DNA of 64,000 nucleotides from Bacteroidaceae bacterium (GCA_963654235.1 CAVJZR010000001.1:5049-69048), one strand, 5' to 3'; counted from the stretch's first letter, positions 15,304 through 37,177 are shown. Numbers and translations: made by a program. The notes: generated by a model not told the origin, from the letters alone.

Positions 15304-17361
15304 ATGAAACAACTTAGACTTTTATGCCTCTTTGGGGCAACTATGTGTTCATGGCTCGCTGGTCACGCGCAGACAGTGGAGCTGATTAACGACACCATTG
15401 CTACCATCACAACTACTGCTGCAGGACAGATTGGTACGCAGAGCGGTTTGAGTTATGCTTATGCTGACGGCGTGAAGAGCCAGCTCGGTAAGGGTCAGGC
15501 GAAATATTTCAGCGTGGAAGGACCTATCAATGATGCCGACGTGAACGCCATCCTTGATAACGGCGGCAAGAATAACGTGCTGACGCTGGACCTCTCAGGC
15601 GCTACCATCGATCACCTCGAGGAAGCGGGTGCCACTTCAGATAAAACTGAAAGCAAGGGTACATTCTACGTAGCTGCTAAGAATAGCAACTACCCTTTGA
15701 TTTACCTAGCACTACCCAAGATCACATCAACAACCCAGACCAACATCCCGACGTTTGTCATCTCGAATTATGAAAGCAAAATAGAAGAAACAGGTATTGC
15801 GCAATATGCTACCGTGAAATACCTTTCCAACCTCATCATCCCTGAAGGCTACACCAGCATTGACGATGGTGCTTTTGCATACACAATGGAGAGCGCAGCT
15901 ACAGATGTATCTCTGATCATTCCTGAAGGAGTCAAAAAGATTGGCAATTACGCTTTCAGTAAATGTAAAGTGGCAAACCTCACCCTACCCAAATCTCTAG
16001 AGACCATTGGCGATCAAGCCTTCCTATTTCACAAGTGTCAGCTTCTCGTATTCAAAGAGAACCTAAAATATCTAGGTGAAGAGGCTTTCCTTTCCAGTTC
16101 CAACGACTTGCAGGATGTTTACTTCCTAGGAAAGGATGCTCCTGAATGTGCCAATGACGTGTTCGGTAACGGACCATACACAGGATGGGGTGGACATACT
16201 AACTTTGGAGATCAAGACTACGCTACACGTGACAACTTTTACAACAATGGTCATTACTTCTGTATCCTCCACTATCGTCCTGACTTGACCGACGAGCAGC
16301 TCGCCAACTATTGGGACGTAACGCGCGAATATCACTACAAAGACCTTTACCTAGGCAGCGAACGTACATGGCCTAACCAGGCGGACTATAATAAGGCACA
16401 TGGTCCTCAAAAAGCAGACGATAGCAAGGTGGGCGCTATCAATGGTTACCTCTTTGACGGCAGCGAGATGACTGATGAGCAGAAGAAGCACATCGGTATC
16501 CTACGCTTCGTGCTGGGACGTGCCGATGCTCCTATCCCCGACCAACCATTGCCCGTGAAGGACAACAGCTGGTGGACCCTCTGTCTGCCTTACACCCTAA
16601 CCAAGGCAGAGATACAAGAGTACTTCGGCGATGAGACACAGGTATGGAAGTTTAACCGCGTCACACGCGACTATGACAACTTCAAGATCAACATCATCTT
16701 CCAGAACGAACTCTCTTCTGACGATGACTATATCATCAACGCATGGTATCCTTACGTGATCAAGCCAAGCAAGGAATTCACTGCCGATGACAAGATCATC
16801 ATCAACAAGGACCCAGAGCTCGGTTCAGCAAGAACTAATAGTTTTACGGCAACCAAAACGGGAAGCTACATCTCAGATACCGAATACAATTGGATATATA
16901 GCTTCCATGGCAGCTGCTCTGGTGTAGCTTCAGACCAGACCGGTATCCACTATCACCGCCCCAGCGCATGCTACTTCATGGGTGGTAAGGTAGTGAACGG
17001 CAAGACCGAGGTGAAGTTCTACTATCAGAACCTTGAGGAGACGCAGACCAATGGTAACATCTGGAATCCCTACACCTGCGTGCTGATTCCTTATAAGACA
17101 AGCCTCAAGACACAACTTGAAGAGGACGCTGACGATAGCTTCAAGACCTCTTCAGGCAACAGCGCCAAGAGCTACATCACCACATGGGGCGACGAGGAGA
17201 CCGACGCCATCTGGACGGTGAACATCGTCACACCTGACGACATGGTCAACGGCAACATCTATAACATGCAAGGTCAGCTGGTGAAGGCCAACGCAGATAG
17301 CACAGACGGTCTGCCTAAGGGCATGTATATCCACAATGGTAAGAAGATTGTGGTGAAATAA
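15304..17361 (+). CDS. Secreted BspA-type leucine-rich-repeat protein with a T9SS C-terminal sorting domain
   Basis: Signal peptide. LRR units of the IPEGVKKIGNYAFSKC / LPKSLETIGDQAF type. The C-terminus NIYNMQGQLV...LPKGMYIHNGKKIVVK resembles the Por/T9SS CTD. Confidence 0.75.
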   Translation: MKQLRLLCLFGATMCSWLAGHAQTVELINDTIATITTTAAGQIGTQSGLSYAYADGVKSQLGKGQAKYFSVEGPINDADVNAILDNGGKNNVLTLDLSGATIDHLEEAGATSDKTESKGTFYVAAKNSNYPLIYLALPKITSTTQTNIPTFVISNYESKIEETGIAQYATVKYLSNLIIPEGYTSIDDGAFAYTMESAATDVSLIIPEGVKKIGNYAFSKCKVANLTLPKSLETIGDQAFLFHKCQLLVFKENLKYLGEEAFLSSSNDLQDVYFLGKDAPECANDVFGNGPYTGWGGHTNFGDQDYATRDNFYNNGHYFCILHYRPDLTDEQLANYWDVTREYHYKDLYLGSERTWPNQADYNKAHGPQKADDSKVGAINGYLFDGSEMTDEQKKHIGILRFVLGRADAPIPDQPLPVKDNSWWTLCLPYTLTKAEIQEYFGDETQVWKFNRVTRDYDNFKINIIFQNELSSDDDYIINAWYPYVIKPSKEFTADDKIIINKDPELGSARTNSFTATKTGSYISDTEYNWIYSFHGSCSGVASDQTGIHYHRPSACYFMGGKVVNGKTEVKFYYQNLEETQTNGNIWNPYTCVLIPYKTSLKTQLEEDADDSFKTSSGNSAKSYITTWGDEETDAIWTVNIVTPDDMVNGNIYNMQGQLVKANADSTDGLPKGMYIHNGKKIVVK

Positions 17362-25021: not shown

Positions 25022-27280
25022 TCAGAGAGAGATGCCCTTCTCTTGGCTCTTTATCTTGTTCTCATCAATATTGATCTTGCTTTTCTTATTCTTACGCATG
25101 GTCCATCGAACGGTCATGCGAAGTTCTCGGTTCGAATTGACAACATGACTGATACGGTCATATCCATCGACATGGTAGTGCTGATCGTATTTGGTCTTAC
25201 CAAATGTCTGGCTGCTACCGAGAATGAAGATAAGGTCTGGAGTGATGTTATAAGAAACATAGACGGCGCTAGAATATGGACCTCTATAACTTGTTTCTGC
25301 ATAAGGAGTATAGGACTTGTTCTGATAAGAAATATCGCTCTCGACATGGAAGCCCTTATAATTCCACATAACGTAAGCGGACAAGCTAAAATACTTCTTA
25401 CACTTCTCACCTAGATATTTGATTAACCCATATTTGGCTGAAGCCGAAAAGTCCAACGTCTTATAGCTATACGTAGCCGTTTGCGAAACCGAAAAGCCAT
25501 GATAGCTGCCATAGTTCTTATAAGTGGAGTAATAAATGCCTTTGTCGTAATAAGAATAAGGGAGTATGAGGTCCTTTGAATAAACATAATCTACGGACGT
25601 GGAGGAACTGAATCCTGAAACATATATGTATTCCTTAAGACTCAATGAATGGGTTCGCTCTGGAACAAGCAGAGGATTACCACTTGAGAATATCAACGAA
25701 TCGGTAGAAGTGTTGTATGGATTCAACTTATCTATAGCTGGTTGTGAATTGGTCAGTTTATATTCTAACGACGTTTCGGATATTCCTTTTTCATAAGAGA
25801 TGTCCGCTGATATATTAGGACGCAAATACGAGTTCTTTACACCTGCAGAATTGAGGTGCATATAGTCGGCTCCTGCAGACAAAACAGAAGAGAAATCGCC
25901 CAACGACATAGACAAGGCTGTATAGAAGTATTCGTTTAAACTTTTAAACTTAAACTGGTTGGCCAAGCTCTCCTGCTTAATTCTATTAGTGGAGTAGTCG
26001 GTAGCGTTTCCGAAATCTAAAGAAAAGACTTTGCTTATCTCCCACGACAAATCCAGTTCTTGACTTAAGAAATGCCTTTTGGTTGAAAACATATCATCGT
26101 CTTGTATATCAGCTTTGCCTAACTGTTGAACCTCACTATTTGTTTGACTGTTATTATTAATCGTGTATCTAGCAGTGTTCTCTAAGGATAAATTCTTACC
26201 AAACTGATGCTTGTAATACAAAGATGATGTATAGACATGAGACCTAACAACCGACTTCTCATAGGAAGAATACTTCAACGAGTCAGAATTGGCATTGACG
26301 TGCCAACCTTTACTATCTGCGTCAGATGTGCTATGATTGTCATCGCCTTGGAAGCTAACAATGAAATAATCTTTCTTTGTAGGTCTCCACTTGATCATGG
26401 TTTGGTAGCTAAAATCATGGTTTCTGTCGTTTATGGCAGAATTATAATCTCTACTATAATCCGTTGATCGAATGTTTTTACTGGAGGAAGCATGATTATA
26501 ACGTTTCCACGTAGGACCTAGAGTAACATAAAGCGACAACTTGCTATTGCCAACTTCAAAGGTCGGGCCCGTCCATCCTGATTTCCAAGGAAATGTGTTG
26601 CCATACCCTAAGCGTAGATATGTGTAGAGAGATTTGGTCTGTTTCAGATGAATATTAACAATACGCTGGGCACCAGACCTTATGTATTTGGAACTAACGA
26701 CATCTATCACCTCTACCGATTCAATCCTAGACGGAGATATGGGAGAAAGTCCGGTATTCATCTTTGCTCCATCTACTAGGAACAAGATGCTTTTGCCATC
26801 ATCAGAACTTAGGCCTTCATTTATATAATCACTCCGCAACTTCGGAATTTCTTGCAACGCAATGTATGGGTTATTGCTTTTTACAGCATCTTCTGAAAGA
26901 AAGTAGATATGACCATAAGGAGTCTTTATTGGACGCCTATGTCCAACAACCGTAACCGAATCCATGCTTATGGTTGTTTCTTTCATTATGCCGTAATAGT
27001 TATTTTTTTCATGCAAGTCTATACTATCAGTAAGGGTCTCATAACCCAAGCAATGTACAAATAGGGCCACCTTTGCGTCTGGTAAATCATCAATAGCATA
27101 AGAACCCTCACCATCACTACCTCCTATTGCGATCACAGAATCATTAAGCGAAACGATGATTGTTGCCTTTTCAATAGGAGTAAAGTTGTTAGTCAGAATC
27201 TTACCTGACAACTTTATCGATTGGGAAAAAGACAATGCACAATATAAAACACAAAAGACTAGAAATATTGTTCGCTTCAT
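25022..27280 (-). CDS. Outer-membrane beta-barrel protein, TonB-dependent-receptor-like (CarboxypepD_reg-like N-domain + plug-like region + barrel)
   Basis: 752 aa. Signal peptide; N-terminal KLSGKILTNNFTPIEKATIIV...GSYAIDDL fold-type motif; plug-like ALQEIPKL...LVDGAKM...IESVEVI; long alternating beta-strand-like C-terminal region. The ATG is 1 nt after the maturase stop. Confidence 0.7.
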   Translation of the reverse strand: MKRTIFLVFCVLYCALSFSQSIKLSGKILTNNFTPIEKATIIVSLNDSVIAIGGSDGEGSYAIDDLPDAKVALFVHCLGYETLTDSIDLHEKNNYYGIMKETTISMDSVTVVGHRRPIKTPYGHIYFLSEDAVKSNNPYIALQEIPKLRSDYINEGLSSDDGKSILFLVDGAKMNTGLSPISPSRIESVEVIDVVSSKYIRSGAQRIVNIHLKQTKSLYTYLRLGYGNTFPWKSGWTGPTFEVGNSKLSLYVTLGPTWKRYNHASSSKNIRSTDYSRDYNSAINDRNHDFSYQTMIKWRPTKKDYFIVSFQGDDNHSTSDADSKGWHVNANSDSLKYSSYEKSVVRSHVYTSSLYYKHQFGKNLSLENTARYTINNNSQTNSEVQQLGKADIQDDDMFSTKRHFLSQELDLSWEISKVFSLDFGNATDYSTNRIKQESLANQFKFKSLNEYFYTALSMSLGDFSSVLSAGADYMHLNSAGVKNSYLRPNISADISYEKGISETSLEYKLTNSQPAIDKLNPYNTSTDSLIFSSGNPLLVPERTHSLSLKEYIYVSGFSSSTSVDYVYSKDLILPYSYYDKGIYYSTYKNYGSYHGFSVSQTATYSYKTLDFSASAKYGLIKYLGEKCKKYFSLSAYVMWNYKGFHVESDISYQNKSYTPYAETSYRGPYSSAVYVSYNITPDLIFILGSSQTFGKTKYDQHYHVDGYDRISHVVNSNRELRMTVRWTMRKNKKSKINIDENKIKSQEKGISL

Positions 27281-27281
27281 A

Positions 27282-28550
27282 TTATTCTCTTTTAAGTTTA
27301 TTTGTAACCAAATACCTGAAGTATTCCTGTTTGCTTATATTAAGCGACTTCAGATAACATTCTGTATGACCAACTTTAATTTGATTGGGGCAAGGCCCAT
27401 AACAAGAAGGAAACCTTCTGCATGATAAACATTCATCTGGACTTTTCGTGGAGTAGTCATACGCCAGTTTTGATTCATTCCATATTATTTGCCCCGTCTG
27501 AGTATCCAATTTACCATAAGCATTTGTTTGATTAAAATCTGATATAGTTGTACATTTGAAGACTTGCCCGTCATAATTTATAACTGCTTCATTATAGCGT
27601 TCACCAAAACACAATTTTCCTTGAGTATAGTAATCAACACTAAAACCTTCTCCATTGAGTTTTTCAATTGTACTATTGACTATTTCATTATTAATATTTT
27701 CGTGATTTACTTGCCAAACTCTTTTTACAATAATAACAGTTCTACGCCTGTCTAATTCTTTGATTCTAGCCAATATCTCGTCAAAACTTTCTAACGTATT
27801 CTCATCAAAGTTGATTCTAAGGAACAACATAGATGAAGGAATCTTTTCTTGAATCAACTTCATATTCTGAAAAGTCAGAGTAAATAAATCTTTACTCCTA
27901 TCCTTTGTATGCTTTACCTTATTATGTTGTTCTTTATTACCATCAATAGTTATTTGAAATTGACATGATAAATCCGAAAGAAAATCTATGTTCTTTGCAT
28001 CTAGCAAGGTTCCGTTAGTGGTAAAATCAAGATATAACGAAATGCCTCTCTTGATGCAAACATTCTTCGCTCTTTCTATAATATCCTTTATTGCAGGATA
28101 GTTGTAGAAAGGTTCTCCTCCAAAGAAAGATAATTTTAATGTAGAGAAAGGCTCGTTATTACACTTCCAAATGATATGCTTTATAATACCATCAGACACT
28201 TCTTTGCTTATTTTGCTACCTTTATACCTTCGCTCGTAACAATACCAACAAGATAAGTTGCAGTCAAGCGTTGGATTGACAATTAAATGGTAAAGGGATT
28301 TATCATATAGTTCGGTGCTTCTTCTAAATTGTACTATATCTTTTTCATTATAATCATCCTCTACTATGAAATCCATTCTTTTAAGAGAATCCCATAAATC
28401 CTGATATTGCTCTACAGAGCTATTAGGTATGTTTTCATAAAATTCATGACCTTCATGGTCTAAGATAACAATTGCGCCATTAAAATAATTAATGTGTAAG
28501 AAAACGCCATCTTGTATCTCGCAACTATCTTGGTAATATATTTTTCTCAT
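27282..28550 (-). CDS. Radical SAM / SPASM-domain peptide maturase
   Basis: 422 aa. CX3CX2C at DCNLSCWYC. SPASM pattern C-x13-G-x4-C (CFGERYNEAVINYDGQVFKC) and CX2CX5CX3C (CLSCRRFPSCYGPC) plus a trailing Cys. Confidence 0.9.
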   Translation of the reverse strand: MRKIYYQDSCEIQDGVFLHINYFNGAIVILDHEGHEFYENIPNSSVEQYQDLWDSLKRMDFIVEDDYNEKDIVQFRRSTELYDKSLYHLIVNPTLDCNLSCWYCYERRYKGSKISKEVSDGIIKHIIWKCNNEPFSTLKLSFFGGEPFYNYPAIKDIIERAKNVCIKRGISLYLDFTTNGTLLDAKNIDFLSDLSCQFQITIDGNKEQHNKVKHTKDRSKDLFTLTFQNMKLIQEKIPSSMLFLRINFDENTLESFDEILARIKELDRRRTVIIVKRVWQVNHENINNEIVNSTIEKLNGEGFSVDYYTQGKLCFGERYNEAVINYDGQVFKCTTISDFNQTNAYGKLDTQTGQIIWNESKLAYDYSTKSPDECLSCRRFPSCYGPCPNQIKVGHTECYLKSLNISKQEYFRYLVTNKLKRE

Positions 28551-28631: not shown

Positions 28632-28910
28632 TTAATAACACGTTTTATTGTCGTTGACAGCAGTACACATAGGCGTATTATTGATGCTGGAACATTCCTT
28701 GGCACTATTAATAGCTGAACAAGTATTGTTGTGATTAATGACTGAGCATATATCCTTGTTATTTATAACATCACAATGCTTTGCGTCATTACTTGCCGTA
28801 CACTTATTACCATTATTAATTTGATCATAAAGAGATTCTCCACCTCTTATAGCCAACATATGCTTCTTGGTCAATTCTTCTAATTCTTTTGCGTTGAATA
28901 TTTGCTTCAT
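28632..28910 (-). CDS. RiPP precursor peptide: double-glycine leader + Cys-x3-Asn nonapeptide-repeat core
   Basis: 92 aa. The leader MKQIFNAKELEELTKKHMLAIRGG has hydrophobic residues at -4, -7, -12 and -15. Core Cys at residues 37, 46, 55, 64, 73, 82 and 91 (exact period 9). Asn at Cys+4 in six repeats. Sits immediately upstream of the rSAM/SPASM gene. Confidence 0.8.
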   Translation of the reverse strand: MKQIFNAKELEELTKKHMLAIRGGESLYDQINNGNKCTASNDAKHCDVINNKDICSVINHNNTCSAINSAKECSSINNTPMCTAVNDNKTCY

Positions 28911-28979: not shown

Positions 28980-28987
28980 CAAAGTTA
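28980..28987 (-). promoter_or_regulatory. -7 promoter box (TAACTTTG on the minus strand) for the precursor operon
   Basis: Matches the Bacteroidota TAnnTTTG consensus about 70 nt upstream of the precursor ATG. Confidence 0.5.
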
Positions 28988-29125: not shown

Positions 29126-30691
29126 TTAGAAGTTTTCTATGAATTCTCTTGCCGAACCATCGCTTCTTCCTAATCCTAGTTTAGGTTTTATTAGATACAG
29201 CTTCTGTCTGACAGAACTTTCTTCAATGTGGTAAATCTTCGCTATTCTATGTATAGGTAATCTTAGCCTTATAAGCATAAGAAAACGAATATCTTTTTGT
29301 GTAAGGGAAGGGAAACTCTCTTTAAGTCTTTCTACAAAATGGTTGTCTGTATTATCTAGATAAGCTATAAGTTCGTCCCATTCTTCTGTGTTCAACACAA
29401 TCCGCTTCTCTTCTCCTTCATTCATTCTCTTGCTCTCCGCTTTTAACTTATTCACAACATCTACATTCTTCAAAAGAATATTACGAACGTTTACTATCTG
29501 CGATTCTTTGATTTCTACTTCCTTTTTGCATTTTACCATCTTCTCTTCTGTAGTTCTCTTTCTCACATAAAATAGTCTTAGGACAAGCAACATAACACCC
29601 CATGAAAGTATTAATAGTATACTTATAAAGATTATGACCCCTGAGTGCTCTCTTTGTGTTACGGAAGTCTTTTCTAAAAGGATTTGGCTATCTTTGGTTG
29701 CACGTTCCTTTGTGTATTTCCTATTTATATATAATTCTGTGGAATCAGCATAATCATCTACTTGTTTATAGTTCTTTTCAGACAATGCGATGAATTGTCG
29801 TAATGAGAATAAGATATCACCGTAATCAGCATAATCTTCCTGTTTAATATGAGAGAGCAAAGACTTTGCAGCCCCTAACGAGTCTGCTTGACAAAAAGCA
29901 TTTTCCAAAGACAATAAAGAGATAATATCCTTTGATGGGTTGTATGAGAAGGATTCTTTTGCCATCTTCACGGCAGAACCTTCATTACCACACATTCGAT
30001 AGAACACTGATAGGTGATGAAAAACATCAGAGATGGCAGAAGAATCATTGATTTCTTTAGCATATTCGAGAATGTTTCTCGCCAACAAGATGCTTTTCTC
30101 TCTTTCGCTAGGCTTGGAAGCGTAACATTGAGCTAAGTTCAAGACCATATATACCTTATTAGCATCACGATTGCCTTTGATATGATCATATACATCGCAA
30201 GCTAACTGCGCATAGTTTATTGCTTTATCAGCATCATAACCTCTGAGAACAACTGACGTTTGAACGTAACACTTGCTTTGCGTCAAATAATCGTGGTTTC
30301 GTTTGGCGGCAGTAGCAGAACGACTAAAAAGATTCAGCGCTTTTGAGGTATTACCATTCAAAGCATAGTGCTTGCCCATATAGTACATGCTTTTGGCATA
30401 AAGAGAATCCTCTGACCTATCTTTATAATAAGCATAAGCGACGAGAAGAAGCGAATCGTTGTTGCTTTCTATCCCTAACTTATCTTGAGCCATTGTATAT
30501 ACAAGCGCATACATTGCCATATTGCTATCCGAAAGTCGGGTTTGATCAACTTGGTTTAGCAATGCAATTGCACTATCAGGCTTTTGTTCTACCAAAGATA
30601 ACGCGGCCGAGATGCGTGTGTTGTTTTGAGCACAAGACATTATAACAGCAAGCCCAAGTGCTAAAGCCAACATCTTGTTTAAACTTTTCAT
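29126..30691 (-). CDS. Membrane-anchored regulator: lipoprotein signal, TPR-like domain, one TM helix, C-terminal LuxR/GerE-like HTH
   Basis: 521 aa. LAVIMSC lipobox-like signal, TM VIIFISILLILSWGVMLLVLRLF, C-terminal LTQKDIRFLMLIRLRLPIHRIAKIYHIEESSVRQKLYLIKPKLG. Minus-strand TAATTTTG box at 30720-30727. Confidence 0.7.
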   Translation of the reverse strand: MKSLNKMLALALGLAVIMSCAQNNTRISAALSLVEQKPDSAIALLNQVDQTRLSDSNMAMYALVYTMAQDKLGIESNNDSLLLVAYAYYKDRSEDSLYAKSMYYMGKHYALNGNTSKALNLFSRSATAAKRNHDYLTQSKCYVQTSVVLRGYDADKAINYAQLACDVYDHIKGNRDANKVYMVLNLAQCYASKPSEREKSILLARNILEYAKEINDSSAISDVFHHLSVFYRMCGNEGSAVKMAKESFSYNPSKDIISLLSLENAFCQADSLGAAKSLLSHIKQEDYADYGDILFSLRQFIALSEKNYKQVDDYADSTELYINRKYTKERATKDSQILLEKTSVTQREHSGVIIFISILLILSWGVMLLVLRLFYVRKRTTEEKMVKCKKEVEIKESQIVNVRNILLKNVDVVNKLKAESKRMNEGEEKRIVLNTEEWDELIAYLDNTDNHFVERLKESFPSLTQKDIRFLMLIRLRLPIHRIAKIYHIEESSVRQKLYLIKPKLGLGRSDGSAREFIENF

Positions 30692-30910
30692 CTTATATTT
30701 TTTCTTGGATACGCTGCTGCAAAATTACATCTAAAATCTTAATTATTCTCATTTCGTTTCTGTTTTTTAGATTCTTTCGTTTTAAAAACGCACCTCGATT
30801 CGGGACAAGAATGCCTTGAAGCCTCCTAGCAAGAGCATTATACGTCTGCGGCACTTATTCTTTCGAGTGTTCATATCATCATTCTCACCCTCTGAAAGCG
30901 CCCGATGCTA

Positions 30911-30982
30911 AACAAAAAATAAATTGATTTTTGCTGAGAAATAATTTATTTTCTTTCAGAAATCAATTTATTTTTCTCTGCC
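30911..30982 (-). repeat. Triple AAATAAATT-box element, copy S2 (reverse orientation)
   Basis: The reverse complement aligns box for box with S3 (47431-47507). Confidence 0.7.
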
Positions 30983-31202
30983 ATACCTACCCTTCTATCT
31001 CTTCATATACCTCATTTTGGAATACAACTTAGCGTATCCGTCACTTTCTTCGAAGGAAGCCTGAACGTACTATGTCCTTGTTTGGCAATGCGGTAATGCC
31101 TTTCAAAGGGAGTGCGTTTCCCGAACTGGGGTAAACGTAGATTAATCATATCGCTATAATTGGTTACTTAATGCGCTCACTGAAACTTTGTGACAACGCA
31201 AA

Positions 31203-33749
31203 CTAGATTGAACAACTGATTTTACAAAGTATTGCACGCGGGCGAAGCGTATTGATGGTAAACGTCCGAAGATAGTCACTTATTACTGTTCGTTCATAAT
31301 GGATTGTTCCAAAAACATTGGTGCATGAAAGCCCCAGTTCATAGCTTTTGGTACGATAGCTTACGTTTACATCACAGAAATAATTGTTACTGATCGTTGC
31401 GTCATTGCTATGGTAATATTCATTTCTCCATTCTATTTGCCATTTGCCTGGCATGAAGATCACGTCAACGGAATGGCAGAAATAGTTCAAGGCAGAACGG
31501 CTGATAGCTTGATCGGGAGATTTCTGAACAATATTGTTCCATCTGCTTTTCCCTTCTACGGATAGCCATGTGCTCGGATGCCACAATAGTTCCAACCCCA
31601 TATAGCCTTTGCGTTGTTTCATCAGCGTTTTATTTCCGCTTATCATAAGGTAGTACTGATACCAACTGATGTTACCTGTTAGAGCTAACGATAGCTTTCC
31701 CCAACCTATCGACTTAGCAATTCGACCGTTAAGGATGTAAGAGCTGGTATTACCTTCGTTCGTCGTCGCTCTTCTAACGTAGATTCCATCCATATACGAA
31801 CTGCTATAAAGTATATTGTTGCTAGAACGGTTATAAGAGAAAGACGTACTAGCAGAAAAGCCATGAACAGGATTGGTATATTGCCAATTGTTGCTCACAA
31901 GATGAACGTTTGAACTTACAAGTCGTCCAAGCCCCTCCACCAATGTAATATAATCAGTATAGATGGGTGACGACGAAATGGCATCCAACGAACCGGGACT
32001 CCATATATAAAGGTAATCAAGATGCGTTTTGAGATATGGACTTAAGCTATACTCCAACGACACTGTTGGTTCAAAAGCTATGTGTTGTTTGTTGGCTTCA
32101 TTGAAACATCTGCTATTCCAACTTAGTTTTGCTATGGCGCTTAAGCTAAGCAATCTTGACTTATAGGAAAATGATGGACTGGCATAAAGTTTCAGCAAGC
32201 TATATCTGTCTTTGTTACTAGTATAATGGTTTTCTATGCCTTGATGATAGTTGTCATATTCTTCGCCAATGGTCCATGCGATGTAAGATCTAGCAACCTT
32301 ATGTCTAAAATACGCAGACGTTTTCACAGATAGGTGATGAATTCCAAGATATTCCCCACTTCCATTCATCAATAGGACGTAGCCCGGAAGGAAGCTGTAC
32401 CTTAACTTGGTGTTAAAGGAAACACTATGCCCACCATAAAGATTTCTGATAAGCCGAAGGGTGTTAGCAATATATCGTTTTCTTGGTTCTACGTCTTGTT
32501 TTACATCTGAGCCATTCAGCAAGGTTGCTCCTCGTGAGTAGTTAAAGTCCATGTATCCTTTAAGACTATTGCTCAGATATGTTTTATCCGAGTTCAACTT
32601 ATAAAGCAGTTCGCCTTTCCATTCATTGCGTTTGCTGAATGCATTTCTGCTTTCAGAGATCATCGCTCCGTCCGATGTGGCATCTAGGAAAGTAGTCTGT
32701 CTGAACATATTCTGTTGAGTCTTATCTAAGAGTCCATCTAGTTGAAATCGAAGGTCAGCATTATCGGTTGGTTTGAAAAGCCAGTTGGTTGCAAAAACAC
32801 GCGAATCATTGAATGCGTACCTTTTCATCTCTAGCGATGGCGCTTGAATGATGATAGAGCTAAGACGTTCTCCGTCATCGGTCATCAAGTCGTTAGCTGA
32901 CAAATCGGTTATTTCATGTCCGATGTCCTTACCCGTGTTATTGGTCTTATACATGCTTATGCTTTGGCGTTTATGAGCAAAAAGCATGGCCATAAGTCTT
33001 GCATCACGAAGCCATTCGCCTTTGCCTTGCAACGTATGTCCACCTGCGACATCAAGCACCCCTTGCCAAACATTCTTAGCATCGTCTTTCAACACAATAT
33101 TCAATGCGGCTTGATCACTAAAACTAACATCACGCAGCGCGCGTACTGGTTGATGATTATTAAGCACTTGTACCTTACTCACTTTGGTAGCATCGATATT
33201 TTCGCTTGCTAAAGAGTATTTGCCGCCTAGCAAGTCCATGCCTTCAATATAGAATTTGTTTATCGGTTGATCATTGACAACAATCTGCCCGCTCGGTCTC
33301 ACTTCGACACCTGGTATTTTGGAAAGCACATCAGCAATACTACGATCTTGCTTCTGCATATACGCTGAGACAAGATAAGTAACCGTGTCACCCTCTATCT
33401 TTGCCCTGTCTGGCATGACCTTTACTTCCTTTAACTCGAATGCTTTTTCATGAAGAATGTATGTAGCGCCTTCTTTGAATTTATCCAAAGGCAATGTAAT
33501 ATCCGCATAGCCCATCTTCCGAAGCCGAATAGATTGTGTCTGCTTCTTTTCTGGACAAACCACCATGAAGCTTCCGTCTTGTTTGCTTTGCGCATAAGCT
33601 ACAGGACAATTGTTGTAAAGCAAGGCTATCGTTACACCCGAAAGAGCATTGCCTATCGTATCTACAATGACGCCACGATATCTTTGCGCAGAGCTAAGGG
33701 TGACTCCGAGCACATTTAAGAAAAATACGATGGCAAATAATCTTCTCAT
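31203..33749 (-). CDS. Outer-membrane beta-barrel protein, TonB-dependent-receptor-like (second copy of the CarboxypepD_reg/plug/barrel architecture)
   Basis: Start set at MRRLFAIVFFLNVLGV (signal peptide); the ORF extends to 33782. YRGVIVDTIGNALSGVTIAL N-domain and a plug-like region (SIADVLSKIPGVEV...FYIEGMDLLGGKY). Confidence 0.7.
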   Translation of the reverse strand: MRRLFAIVFFLNVLGVTLSSAQRYRGVIVDTIGNALSGVTIALLYNNCPVAYAQSKQDGSFMVVCPEKKQTQSIRLRKMGYADITLPLDKFKEGATYILHEKAFELKEVKVMPDRAKIEGDTVTYLVSAYMQKQDRSIADVLSKIPGVEVRPSGQIVVNDQPINKFYIEGMDLLGGKYSLASENIDATKVSKVQVLNNHQPVRALRDVSFSDQAALNIVLKDDAKNVWQGVLDVAGGHTLQGKGEWLRDARLMAMLFAHKRQSISMYKTNNTGKDIGHEITDLSANDLMTDDGERLSSIIIQAPSLEMKRYAFNDSRVFATNWLFKPTDNADLRFQLDGLLDKTQQNMFRQTTFLDATSDGAMISESRNAFSKRNEWKGELLYKLNSDKTYLSNSLKGYMDFNYSRGATLLNGSDVKQDVEPRKRYIANTLRLIRNLYGGHSVSFNTKLRYSFLPGYVLLMNGSGEYLGIHHLSVKTSAYFRHKVARSYIAWTIGEEYDNYHQGIENHYTSNKDRYSLLKLYASPSFSYKSRLLSLSAIAKLSWNSRCFNEANKQHIAFEPTVSLEYSLSPYLKTHLDYLYIWSPGSLDAISSSPIYTDYITLVEGLGRLVSSNVHLVSNNWQYTNPVHGFSASTSFSYNRSSNNILYSSSYMDGIYVRRATTNEGNTSSYILNGRIAKSIGWGKLSLALTGNISWYQYYLMISGNKTLMKQRKGYMGLELLWHPSTWLSVEGKSRWNNIVQKSPDQAISRSALNYFCHSVDVIFMPGKWQIEWRNEYYHSNDATISNNYFCDVNVSYRTKSYELGLSCTNVFGTIHYERTVISDYLRTFTINTLRPRAILCKISCSI

Positions 33750-33760
33750 GCAGTAAGCGT

Positions 33761-34564
33761 TTATGGTTTCTCTATAAGGCACGCTTCCTTATTTCGAGGC
33801 GATTTGCGGTTTCCTTGAGCATCATACGTAGTGCCACGAAATCCCCAAACTCGTTGCATAGCTGCATCCTCGTCTTTAGCCTCAAGGGTAAGAAGGTTGG
33901 CAAGCTGTTTAGCATCACAATGCTTGTATTCTTTCTTTATCGGTTCGAACGTGCTACGCTTGTTGTTACCTTCTATCCCAATAGCGTCAAAGACAAAGTC
34001 CCCTTCTATATCCTTCGCATAAAGAATAAGTCCTGGCAAACCACATAGCTTCCAAGGCCCGTCATCAATAGCTATATCTGGCGTATAGTAAACTATCCAT
34101 GTACGTCCTCGATACGTCGTTTCTGCTTTATAAGCAGCATATCCCAATATAATGGTATCGCTATCTATCAAACGCCATTCAAACTGTGGCATTGGTTCTT
34201 CGTACTTAAAATCATCCCATACCTTGCTGATGTAAGTAAGTGTGCCAGTAGAAGGATAGTTTTTAAACACCTCGATATTAGTGTTCTGCCGTAGTAAATC
34301 CATCTTTTTAAGAACGCTTATAACGTCATAACCGCTATAACCTAAGCGTAACAGACTATCCTTAACTACCTCTCCACGATAATTATCTAGACAATAAAAA
34401 CAAGAAACATCGTCTGAAATATCAAGAACGTTAGTACAAACCATTGGGCTCGCATCGTTTTTGTATTTATGGAAAGTAGTGCTGTACGTCACGCTTATCC
34501 CCCAACATACATTGTAGGAGAAAAGAATCATAAAGAGGAATAATATATTAATTATCTTTGGCAT
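33761..34564 (-). CDS. GLPGLI family protein
   Basis: 267 aa with a signal peptide. Contains the family-defining motif (WKLCGLPGLILYA). Confidence 0.8.
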   Translation of the reverse strand: MPKIINILFLFMILFSYNVCWGISVTYSTTFHKYKNDASPMVCTNVLDISDDVSCFYCLDNYRGEVVKDSLLRLGYSGYDVISVLKKMDLLRQNTNIEVFKNYPSTGTLTYISKVWDDFKYEEPMPQFEWRLIDSDTIILGYAAYKAETTYRGRTWIVYYTPDIAIDDGPWKLCGLPGLILYAKDIEGDFVFDAIGIEGNNKRSTFEPIKKEYKHCDAKQLANLLTLEAKDEDAAMQRVWGFRGTTYDAQGNRKSPRNKEACLIEKP

Positions 34565-34635
34565 ATGCTAATTGAATAAAAGCATTCCACGTTCGTCACG
34601 TTTTTACAAGAGACAAACGTGGAATGCATTCTTAT

Positions 34636-34851
34636 TTAGAACATTCCATATTCTGGATGTTCAGAATACCAAGCCTGATAGATACTAATAATCTGTTCGT
34701 TTGTAAGTACACAATCAAACACTATGTAATCTCCATTTTCAAACACTACCACAGTTCTTTGCGGCTCATCTCTATTGGTAGCATTAGCCGTTGAAAAAGG
34801 ATTGCCCAAAAGTGCTAATGCTAAACCAAGTGTTAATATAAATCTTTTCAT
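34636..34851 (-). CDS. Small secreted hypothetical protein (72 aa from the MKRFILTLGLALALLG start)
   Basis: Clear signal peptide at the internal Met; the longer listed ORF (to 34929) overlaps the upstream gene. Confidence 0.4.
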   Translation of the reverse strand: MKRFILTLGLALALLGNPFSTANATNRDEPQRTVVVFENGDYIVFDCVLTNEQIISIYQAWYSEHPEYGMF

Positions 34852-34909
34852 TGTTTTAACTTTTTTAAAAATGTAATTGTTATAGCGTTGTGCACTTCGC
34901 TTGTTTTGT

Positions 34910-35284
34910 TCATAAGTCCAAACAACCATAGTAGTTGATGTTTTCTTTGTTTACTTGTACATAATACCTACCTTTAAACAAGGTTGGCAAAACAACATAT
35001 TCTTGAGAAACATCAACGTCTAAAGAGCAGACGACTTCTCCCTCGGTAGTTACAATCTCTAGATGACTTGGTTTCAACGTTTCATTAAGCCAAATCCGTT
35101 CACCATCATAATACACATATGCATCATTTGCGTTGGGCATCCGTTGAAGTGGCTTGCTAGACTTTGTATCATCGACGTAATAAGTACGCATTACTATTAC
35201 GTAAATGTCACCATTCTGTCTAGTTTGGGCTTGTAATAGGAAGATTGGTGCAAATAGTATAACCAACAATACTTTCCTTATCAT
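34910..35284 (-). CDS. Small secreted protein; the C-terminal part resembles a T9SS-CTD/DUF3244-type beta-sandwich (tentative)
   Basis: 124 aa. Signal peptide MIRKVLLVILFAPIFLLQAQ. C-terminal LPTLFKGRYYVQVNKENINYYGCLDL. Minus-strand TATTTTTG box about 35 nt upstream. Confidence 0.45.
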   Translation of the reverse strand: MIRKVLLVILFAPIFLLQAQTRQNGDIYVIVMRTYYVDDTKSSKPLQRMPNANDAYVYYDGERIWLNETLKPSHLEIVTTEGEVVCSLDVDVSQEYVVLPTLFKGRYYVQVNKENINYYGCLDL

Positions 35285-35455
35285 CCTTTTATCTTTATCA
35301 TTATATGTTATTATATTGCAAAAATAAAGATAAAAGATTAAGCGGTAAACTTTAATGAGTACACTTAGTACACTTTACGCAAAAGAAGAGTTCTACTTCT
35401 TGTCAGCAAATCCGTGTATCTTAGACAACTAACTCTAGAAATACACATTGTACAC

Positions 35456-37177
35456 CTACAATCCTGTTTTATAAATATTAGAAGTAAATGTTTTAGAGCC
35501 CATATCCCCAAACAATGTTTTGTTTAGTTTTGCACGAAGATTCGTCATTCTCTGCTTAGAAATATCAAGTAATACGGAAATTTCAGATGGTATAAAGTGT
35601 AATCTTGTGAGGATACACACTTTTCTTTCCTGTTCTGTTAATGAAAAGTTTTTGTCGTCAATAAAGTCGTAAAATTTAAACAATGACACCTTTACAATAT
35701 CGTAAAGTTCTTCCCATTCCATATTCGTTGGCCGTTTTATAGTTGAAGCATACTTATGAAATTGTAATACCATCGTATGCTCCATAAGATTTCTTTCAGC
35801 CTCTTTATCAGAAGCGAGAAACTTTCCTGTGTACGATGATAATAGGGTTGAAAGCCTGTTGATTTGATCTTCCTTGTCCTTCTTACTTTTTTCAACATCC
35901 ACTTCCAATTTCCGTAGTTCTTCCAATGCCGCATAATATTGCTGAAGTATCTCTATGTATTTTAAATTATAGATTCTCAGTTCTTGTTTTCGCTTCTTCT
36001 TCCTACTATTGATCAAGAAGCTAGTAGCTACAACTATTACAATCAATAATAATATTAGTAAGATGCAGTAAAAATGATATTCTTTCGCTTCAGCAGCTTT
36101 TTTATCAGCTACTTTTTGCTTTTCTGAGTAATTATAAAGGGATTGCGCTTTGCTAATCTCATCGGCAGAATGAATCACATTGGCAGAATCATTAATAATA
36201 GTAAAGAGCTTTGCGTATTTTACTACAGAATCGATCTCATTCAATTGGGAATAGTCTTCCATGAGTCCTCTATACGCATTTTCTTGACTGTTTAGGTCTG
36301 TAGAACAAGAGGCTAGCTTTCTATAATAGTATAAAGAAGAATCTAGATTGAGCGTTTCTTTATAATAGCGTCCCATATAATAATAGAAGAACTCATGTCC
36401 TTGTGTTAGCTCTCCATTACTAAAAAGCCCAGAATGAAGTATGTACTCAGTAATCTGCTTCTTTGCTAAATTCAGATGTTTGTTCTCTATATTATTATCA
36501 ATTTGGATACCAAGCGATGCGGCAGCATAGTCCTTTCTGCCTATTTTCTTATATTCATTATATGTATCCTTCGCCACCTTCAAGGCTTTGGATTTATTTC
36601 CCCACAAAAGATATGCGCCTACACATCGCTCCTTTAACTGAATAGCCATTAATGTATCACTACACATGAGAGCATATTTTCGTGCCATATTCCAATAATA
36701 CATTTCTTCCTGAGGCATTCTTTGTTCATGAAACAAAGATGCTATTTGCCCATATATTCTAGGAAGTTCTTTTGAAGGACTTACTGTATCTGCAACCTCC
36801 ACAGCTTTCAAATAAAACTTAATTGCAGAAGGACAATCACCTTTATCACGATAGACGCATCCCATCATATAGGATGCATTCATTGTTTCTATTTCGCTAC
36901 CATTCGAATCATAATAACGTAGTACTTCATCCATGAAAGATATCGTATCCATCGGGATATATGCTTTATTCATTGCTTCTGCGTATATCAGTAGGTATTT
37001 CATTCGGTTTCGACGACTGAAGTTCTTTAGACTACTCCATTTGTTCTTTAGGATGACGTATGCTGAATCAGGTTGCTTTTCTAATAAGGAAGAAGCTTCT
37101 ACTATCACCTTAGGTGTTGTAGGATTCTCGCAAGAAACCATAAGAATAAAAAACAAAAAATATAGTATGCGTTTCAT
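35456..37177 (-). CDS. Membrane-anchored regulator, paralog of 29126..30691 (lipoprotein signal, TPR-like, TM, LuxR/GerE-like HTH)
   Basis: 573 aa. FILMVSC signal, TM FYCILLILLLIVIVVATSFLI, coiled-coil region, C-terminal LTEQERKVCILTRLHFIPSEISVLLDISKQRMTNLRAKLNKTLFG. Confidence 0.7.
   Translation of the reverse strand: MKRILYFLFFILMVSCENPTTPKVIVEASSLLEKQPDSAYVILKNKWSSLKNFSRRNRMKYLLIYAEAMNKAYIPMDTISFMDEVLRYYDSNGSEIETMNASYMMGCVYRDKGDCPSAIKFYLKAVEVADTVSPSKELPRIYGQIASLFHEQRMPQEEMYYWNMARKYALMCSDTLMAIQLKERCVGAYLLWGNKSKALKVAKDTYNEYKKIGRKDYAAASLGIQIDNNIENKHLNLAKKQITEYILHSGLFSNGELTQGHEFFYYYMGRYYKETLNLDSSLYYYRKLASCSTDLNSQENAYRGLMEDYSQLNEIDSVVKYAKLFTIINDSANVIHSADEISKAQSLYNYSEKQKVADKKAAEAKEYHFYCILLILLLIVIVVATSFLINSRKKKRKQELRIYNLKYIEILQQYYAALEELRKLEVDVEKSKKDKEDQINRLSTLLSSYTGKFLASDKEAERNLMEHTMVLQFHKYASTIKRPTNMEWEELYDIVKVSLFKFYDFIDDKNFSLTEQERKVCILTRLHFIPSEISVLLDISKQRMTNLRAKLNKTLFGDMGSKTFTSNIYKTGL

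Follow-up and report, generated by a model that had tools for sequence, protein, structure and literature searches.

Among the systems that have been described, the closest to the one reported here is SusR, for which Ravcheev et al. described a periplasmic sensor, a transmembrane (TM) helix, and a C-terminal helix-turn-helix (HTH), and which serves as an activator; predicted SusR-like motifs are direct repeats with centres 67 or 77 bp apart (PMC3878776). A second related case is the MACPF lipoprotein/porin cluster BT_3442-BT_3433, which is headed by the tetratricopeptide repeat (TPR) multi-domain protein BT_3442, followed by the small immunoglobulin-like protein BT_3441 (PMC2954219). In this current study, a 64,000-nucleotide stretch of DNA from a Bacteroidaceae bacterium (GCA_963654235.1, CAVJZR010000001.1:5049-69048; the whole stretch is referred to as the window) was analyzed, and attention was given to two genes encoding the proteins P0001 and P0002 (Table 1). 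P0001 and P0002 are probably inner-membrane one-component transcription regulators of the SusR-like class that act on the adjoining promoter. An earlier note on this DNA had also described them as one-component regulators of the adjacent operon, and operator-like repeats, which vary in step with the HTH, now lend support to this proposal. When the literature was searched, no functional or experimental study of BT3442, DUF3244, BSAP-5, or the TPR/LuxR proteins of Bacteroidetes was found.

The two open reading frames (ORFs) were confirmed to share the layout that the earlier note had noticed, namely a lipoprotein-type signal and a TPR region, then a single TM helix that leads through a long linker helix to an HTH at the C-terminus. 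The N-termini are basic and hydrophobic and end in ...IMSC or ...MVSC, and the signal Cys is invariant among 34 homologues of P0001 and 38 homologues of P0002. Pfam and NCBIfam scans of both proteins gave weak TPR matches (Pfam TPR_12 was sub-threshold) and no HTH; in NCBIfam, Porphyromonas FimS was also weakly matched through its periplasmic TPR region. The family profiles of P0001 and P0002 matched many solved TPR proteins, and protein atlas clusters for the family carry "tetratricopeptide repeat protein" as their sole label. Each protein has one strong TM helix, and the 15 residues past this helix contain five (P0001) or seven (P0002) Lys plus Arg. By the positive-inside rule, and with a signal sequence and only one TM helix, the TPR region should lie outside the cytoplasm and the C-terminus within it; signal and TM prediction thus support the periplasmic TPR sensor and cytoplasmic DNA-binding domain proposed earlier, and do not place the TPR region in the cytoplasm. 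The AlphaFold model of P0001 (pLDDT 83.7) is all-alpha. A TPR-like repeat superhelix covers residues 38-304; one helix of 100 residues (308-409) follows, within which the TM segment falls, and the chain closes in a compact bundle at the C-terminus. The nearest folds of this model in Foldseek were consensus TPR (CTPR), Rap, LGN, and NprR, a match that is generic for peptide-binding TPR proteins.

No Pfam HTH was found in the C-termini of P0001 and P0002, and GerE (PF00196) gave no match. Despite this silence of Pfam, three independent lines agree that the C-terminal domain is a divergent LuxR/GerE-type HTH, as the earlier note had suggested. First, hidden Markov models (HMMs) of the C-terminal ~95 residues matched four further proteins in the same genome, and in two of them the residues concerned also score as Pfam GerE: P0172 (GerE 1.8e-8, HMM E 6e-6) and P0173 (GerE 1.2e-16). 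Second, a 35-sequence profile of the domain matched only NarL/FixJ-type DNA-binding domains in the PDB, with VraR (3.7e-5), LiaR (4.5e-4), and GerE (0.011) followed by NarL and DosR. Third, a model of the domain (pLDDT 89.2, pTM 0.79) superimposed on the C-terminal domains of VraR and DosR at 1.7-2.3 Å root-mean-square deviation, with target-normalised TM-scores of 0.72-0.73; its Foldseek E-values were poor (0.3-2), as expected of a 60-residue fold. The domain accordingly combines the four-helix GerE fold with profile similarity to solved members.

Directly repeated words were found behind the regulator genes in a common arrangement. Copy 1 starts ~17-22 nucleotides (nt) past the stop codon. 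Copy 2 lies 75-83 nt beyond copy 1, and from its end to a TAnnTTTG -7 box there are 31-32 nt, a stretch that includes a TTTG-like -33 element. In 24/31 intergenic regions, the one best direct repeat fits this geometry. When a 12-mer anchored 31 nt before the -7 box was used, an upstream twin with at least 9/12 matches was found at 72-83 nt in 27/30 loci. The word itself differs between loci (e.g., TTTTTAGATA, TTTTTAGACC, AAATAGACCT, AAATAGACAT, AAAACTCACCT, and ATGTACACCC), and at P0002-type loci each copy in turn splits into two half-sites that recur with a period of 9-11 bp. Within the window, neither word occurs outside its own pair (0 expected by chance, with patterns defined post hoc). 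The P0001 15-mer pattern occurs twice in the 2.79-Mb genome, and no second pair of either the P0001 or the P0002 pattern, both likewise defined after inspection, was found genome-wide. A sigma-70 consensus promoter scan was uninformative for the Bacteroidetes phylum. Upstream of P0001, at 30720-30745 on the minus strand, TTTTAGATG abuts the -7 box TAATTTTG ~45 nt before the ATG; this element could be a half operator for autoregulation, or could have arisen by chance.

The repeat words were also compared with the HTH. The predicted recognition helix has the motif S-[IV]-x-Q-K, in which x was scored as Arg or Lys. The 9 loci with Arg have TAGAYA and the 12 with Lys have TAGACC, such that 21/21 loci were consistent. 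On a maximum-likelihood tree built with the HTH columns included, each trait changed four times, with three well-supported independent pairs, all in one direction. This covariation is suggestive of the adjacent HTH reading these words.

For comparison with SusR, an orthologue was located in another genome through SusE matches. This DUF6377 protein, P0174 (9.8e-90), lies divergent from GH13, GH97, SusC, SusD, SusE/F, and a second GH13, which is the canonical sus layout (susA-B-C-D-E/F-G), and it was taken as the SusR orthologue because of these neighbours. When the P0002 family profile was aligned with P0174 by hhalign, a probability of 94.8% was obtained (E 5.3e-8, 235 columns), and the alignment spans the last TPR repeat, the TM helix, the linker, and the HTH; the C-terminal domain alone aligned weakly (34%). 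The promoter region of P0174 itself contains a weak 9-nt repeat 66 bp apart. Pfam DUF6377 (PF19904) gave no match in P0001 or P0002 at E up to 1. Both proteins have the SusR-like architecture of signal, periplasmic helical sensor, single TM helix, and C-terminal HTH, and both are followed by long-spacer direct repeats (79 and 82 bp in the window, in line with the 72-83 bp found across the family). Judged by profile and layout, P0001 and P0002 are a sister family that would work like SusR, and not members of DUF6377. P0002 was also aligned with the NCBIfam BT3442 family (NF053779), residues 4-555 falling on positions 6-545 of 563 (E 4.5e-11), with a score of 42.2 bits that is far under the 940-bit equivalog cut-off; P0001 gave no match. 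By this score, P0002 is a distant relative of BT3442 and not a member of its family. The organism's own genome contains a starch-type locus (C11:22000-34600) with SusC/D/E-like genes and large enzyme-sized ORFs. This locus is preceded by a 341-aa cytoplasmic-type ORF, assumed to be LacI-type, and a multi-TM transporter-like ORF, and no SusR-like protein precedes it.

In the mechanism that we propose, the lipid- or signal-anchored N-terminus and the TPR superhelix would face the periplasm, one helix would pass through the membrane and continue as a cytoplasmic linker, and the HTH would bind DNA. Each regulator would act in cis, via both repeat copies, on the promoter just behind its own gene, with P0001 activating the operon for the precursor, the radical SAM enzyme, and the outer-membrane protein (OMP), and P0002 activating the DUF3244/GLPGLI/OMP operon. 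Activation is suggested by the placement of copy 2 directly against the -33 element, a position for an activator, and by SusR being one. A target beside the regulator gene would suit such a protein, because the regulator is unable to leave the membrane. Several points weigh against this proposal. DNA binding, activation, and topology are all features that we infer. The covariation rests on 3-4 independent changes, too few for the sign test to reach significance (p 0.25). The P0002 repeat is short, with a shuffle-test p of 0.33, and its 14-nt pattern was absent from shuffled sequence, yet the pattern was defined post hoc. LuxR-type domains usually bind inverted, not direct, repeats. Moreover, neither Pfam GerE nor DUF6377 matches P0001 or P0002, and P0001 is without the family's usual DUF3244 partner.

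The evidence for this partner comes from the wider family. A scan of species genomes yielded 74 loci, which came from Hallella, Segatella, Prevotella, and Palleniella; a genome often contained several of them. Cargo was recorded at the 37 loci that had 4 kb or more of sequence downstream, by using our own ORF calls and BLAST clustering. At 29/37 P0001-type loci, the first downstream gene was a 117-130-aa ORF that starts ~170-190 nt past the regulator stop codon and keeps a fixed distance from the regulator gene. This small ORF was identified as DUF3244, as one member exceeds the Pfam cut-off and the profile matches PDB 3sd2 at 1.3e-7; it has a conserved N-terminal R-x-P segment before the beta-sandwich. 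DUF3244 was also the first downstream gene in 14 of the 21 P0002-type loci. Other cargo at the 37 loci included OMPs of the type found in the window (19/37), a second family of ~720 aa (14/37), radical SAM enzymes (10/37), and GLPGLI proteins (7/37). The co-occurrence with radical SAM, GLPGLI, and OMP genes that the earlier note had suggested checking was found at part of the loci, and the usual companion proved instead to be DUF3244. In the window, the 124-aa ORF located 172 nt after P0002 had no Pfam match; hhalign to the partner profile gave 88.7% (E 2.6e-6), and an iterative search ties the ORF to clear DUF3244 members. On this evidence, it is a putative divergent DUF3244-like member. Only one DUF3244-like gene was found in the genome, and none stands next to P0001. 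The family is a large one. P0002-type regulators were found in 71/150 sampled genomes of the same family (up to 9 matches per genome) and in 3/300 genomes sampled across the phylum, and a library of 1.84 billion proteins contained 3,333 representatives of 50%-identity clusters at E <=1e-30. Small peptides with a double-glycine (GG) leader were seen downstream of the regulator at L025, L030, L035, L037, L043, L044, L046, L061, L076, and L087, with core types that vary widely: some are rich in Gly, some are rich in Cys, and some are helical and have a Cys at the C-terminus. This variety suggests a diverse repertoire of peptide toxins or peptides made by ribosomes and modified after translation (RiPPs) under this regulator family.

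As to the signal, our best guess is a periplasmic protein or peptide that would be held in the TPR groove, with the co-transcribed DUF3244 protein as the leading candidate in the canonical cassette. In the P0001 family, the N-terminal ~105 residues of the sensor are the most conserved part (mean column identity 0.71 vs 0.62 for the HTH), and this block is common to cassettes with different cargo. Such a shared block points to a common partner, for which DUF3244 is the obvious candidate, rather than to each cassette's own product. It is possible, as a tentative explanation, that the small secreted DUF3244 protein is a partner switch that binds the TPR region as its direct ligand, in the role of co-sensor or anti-activator, through which the regulator would receive feedback on export or envelope state with no external molecule involved. 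The place of DUF3244 as first downstream gene at a fixed distance in most loci of both types, its conserved R-x-P segment, and the conserved N-terminal TPR block, which fits a conserved partner, all agree with such a switch; on the other side, P0001 has no adjacent DUF3244 in a genome with one DUF3244-like gene, and co-transcription alone is no proof of binding.

The earlier note had instead proposed sensing of a RiPP. For P0001 itself, autoinduction by a peptide is possible, as this regulator has no DUF3244 and adjoins a GG-leader precursor with Cys repeats. The scheme in which the mature Cys-repeat peptide, or the leader cleaved from it, is captured in the periplasm by the TPR region of P0001, so that the peptide's own biosynthetic operon is switched on (RiPP or bacteriocin autoinduction) nevertheless seems to us unlikely. 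The GG-leader precursor and the radical SAM maturase lie directly behind P0001, GG-leader peptides occur at several related loci with radical SAM enzymes at 10 of the 37, the TPR fold resembles that of the peptide-binding Rap and NprR, and a survey of Bacteroidales RiPP clusters recorded TPR genes adjoining two clusters (PMC10352776). However, 27/37 cassettes are without a radical SAM enzyme, the cargo behind P0002 and BT3442 is not of the RiPP kind, cassettes with different cargo have the best-conserved part of the sensor in common, and the similarity to Rap is generic to TPR folds. Moreover, a crude count of GG-leader ORFs by regular expression showed no separation between downstream (20/40) and upstream (15/38) regions, and no enrichment is claimed. 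As a general rule, RiPP sensing is unlikely, and this part of the earlier note was not supported as such a rule: in the cargo census, radical SAM and GLPGLI genes were both far less frequent than DUF3244, BT3442 heads a MACPF cluster, and the well-conserved N-terminal block recurs in cassettes of differing cargo. It is highly improbable that P0001 and P0002 are not transcription factors but TPR lipoprotein scaffolds for OMP assembly or export, with a C-terminal domain of other role and repeats read by another factor: the absence of a Pfam HTH match, the frequent service of TPR lipoproteins as assembly factors, and the large OMPs in 19/37 loci would suit a scaffold, but the C-terminal fold and profile specifically match LuxR/GerE DNA-binding domains, the TM-linker-HTH module also occurs on a propeller/Y_Y_Y sensor in the same genome, the operator word co-varies with a recognition-helix residue, and SusR, to which the family is homologous, is known to be an activator.

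The relationship between the two proposed membrane regulators was also assessed. BLASTP linked P0001 and P0002 over the first 122 residues only (27% identity), and the C-termini were weakly similar (25% identity, E 0.18). When their family profiles were compared by hhalign, however, the alignment ran end to end (99.9% probability, E 3e-37). P0001 and P0002 are thus, by profile comparison, real but old and distant paralogues, and the paralogy claimed earlier stands. A further protein, P0003, had been put forward as having the same layout with an AraC-type HTH. Its sequence does contain a signal peptide along with a TPR region, one TM helix (363-381), and a clear AraC HTH_18 (3e-19); no relationship to the P0001/P0002 family was detectable (hhalign 4.9%), and its gene lies among housekeeping genes between polA and ychF/lgt. 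The ORF after P0003 (9193-9543) was considered as a DUF3244 and rejected, as it is not DUF3244-like. Elsewhere in the genome, P0171 (C12:3204-4937) is a third TPR-TM-HTH member (hhalign 97.2% to the P0002 family), behind which neither a DUF3244 gene nor a repeat pair was found, and no starch locus adjoins it; the product of the gene next to P0171 is 1007 aa long, and an RGI-lyase beta-sheet domain was weakly matched in it. P0170 (C10:5626-8559), of 978 aa, has a beta-propeller/Y_Y_Y periplasmic sensor, no kinase or receiver, and as its output the TM-linker-LuxR-type HTH module of P0001 and P0002 (HMM E 1e-11).

Both regulator cassettes lie inside a low-GC, Prevotella-type gene island at ~24.6-37.3 kb of the window (32-44% GC vs 49-56% in the flanks), between ribF and a region with a pyridoxal phosphate-dependent decarboxylase and comEC. 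The island consists of two co-directional minus-strand modules, with one regulator at the head of each. The regulators therefore do not bracket the modules, as had been stated earlier; P0001 sits between the two. Module 1 comprises P0001, a 92-aa GG-leader peptide, a maturase of the radical SAM/SPASM type, and an outer-membrane barrel of 752 aa, and module 2 comprises P0002, a 124-aa secreted protein, a 97-aa ORF, a GLPGLI protein, and an 859-aa OMP; neither module holds a SusC/D pair or a glycoside hydrolase. In the 92-aa peptide, a leader ending in ...AIRGG is followed by seven Cys spaced exactly nine residues apart, each then followed by x-x-[IS]-N. The best-scoring models for the maturase are radical SAM/SPASM families for Cys-rich peptides, all below cut-off (TIGR04463, 6e-34; CefB, 1e-32). 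Upstream of the island, at 15304-17361 on the plus strand, a 685-aa BspA-type leucine-rich-repeat surface protein (LRR_5, 8.5e-18) was also observed.

Table 1. Regulators, predicted operators and promoters, and neighbouring genes in the window.
Feature	Position	Strand	Description
P0001	29126..30691	-	521 aa; lipoprotein-type signal (Cys20), predicted periplasmic TPR superhelix (~38-304), TM 352-370, linker helix, LuxR/GerE-type HTH (435-520)
Predicted operator copy 1 of P0001	29091..29105	-	TTTAGATATCTAAAA; begins 24 nt into the intergenic region from the stop codon
Predicted operator copy 2 of P0001	29012..29026	-	TTTAGATATATAAAA; 79 nt past copy 1, just 5' of the promoter
-7 box	28980..28987	-	TAACTTTG; Bacteroidetes-type, of the precursor/radical SAM/OMP operon
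GG-leader precursor-like peptide	28632..28910	-	92 aa; first gene downstream of P0001, no DUF3244
Peptide maturase	27282..28550	-	Radical SAM/SPASM
Outer-membrane beta-barrel protein	25022..27280	-	CarboxypepD_reg + OMP_b-brl_3; final gene of module 1
P0002	35456..37177	-	573 aa; P0001-like architecture (Cys16, TM 371-389), distant P0001 paralogue
Predicted operator copy 1 of P0002	35442..35455	-	GTGTACAATGTGTA; two half-sites, 9-bp period; directly 3' of the stop codon
Predicted operator copy 2 of P0002	35360..35373	-	GTGTACTAAGTGTA; 82 nt past copy 1
-7 box	35319..35326	-	TATTTTTG; of the DUF3244/GLPGLI/OMP operon
Secreted DUF3244-like protein	34910..35284	-	124 aa; the family's usual first cargo gene
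Small exported protein	34636..34929	-	No family assigned; signal-like stretch from residue 27 of the listed ORF
GLPGLI family protein	33761..34564	-	TIGR01200, 4e-41
Outer-membrane protein	31203..33782	-	859 aa; no Pfam match; clusters with the 752-aa OMP family
P0003	7194..8909	+	Signal peptide + TPR + TM + AraC HTH; analogous layout, unrelated, outside the island

The SusR-like class is known, and the present subfamily, its pairing with DUF3244, and its operator code are not described in the searchable literature. If the proposal is correct, the SusR paradigm would be extended past glycan sensing. The cargo of these cassettes (modified peptides, GG-leader peptides, MACPF proteins, and OMPs) consists of the kinds of genes that shape competition in the gut and the mouth. 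A broader suggestion, which at present must be called doubtful, is that these regulators are among the main switches by which Bacteroidales of the gut, mouth, and rumen control surface factors and secreted antagonism, working in cis only, with an operator code of one residue to one base, and gated by co-transcribed DUF3244 and not by a small molecule. Were this so, each regulator with its cargo would form a self-contained, portable, and orthogonal expression cassette that moves between genomes. The operators, the promoter geometry, and the pairing of Arg/Lys with A/C are precise predictions that are cheap to test, and, should they hold, they would offer orthogonal membrane-gated promoters for the engineering of Bacteroides and Prevotella.

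When compared with known systems, P0001 and P0002 share with the proteobacterial ToxR, TcpP, and CadC a single-pass layout in which a periplasmic sensor is joined to a cytoplasmic DNA-binding domain with no phosphotransfer, and in both cases the target promoters must reach the membrane; in ToxR, however, the polarity is reversed, with an OmpR-type winged-helix DNA-binding domain at the N-terminus. A TPR sensor is absent there, and the sequences are unrelated. The RRNPP receptors (Rap, NprR, PlcR, and PrgX), to which the earlier note had drawn an analogy, have a TPR superhelix of similar size, and Rap and NprR were among the best Foldseek matches. These receptors are cytoplasmic, lack a TM helix, carry an N-terminal HTH where one is present, and depend on peptide re-import, whereas the TPR region here is predicted to be extracytoplasmic; the topologies differ, and SusR is the closer system. 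FimS and hybrid two-component sensors have similar periplasmic TPR or propeller domains, yet P0001 and P0002 are without a kinase or receiver, and P0170 provides a parallel in which a propeller/Y_Y_Y sensor is carried on a P0001-type output module. The BT3442 cluster differs in that its cargo is MACPF, with other cargo found behind P0002. Like SusR, the two proteins occur in Bacteroidota, combine a periplasmic helical sensor and one TM helix with a C-terminal HTH, and are encoded beside their putative target operon. Unlike SusR, they have a lipobox Cys and a far more conserved N-terminal TPR block, their predicted target sites lie downstream of the regulator gene rather than in a divergent region, they are not expected to have a sugar ligand, and their cargo is secreted or outer-membrane factors with a DUF3244 companion rather than glycan-utilization genes.

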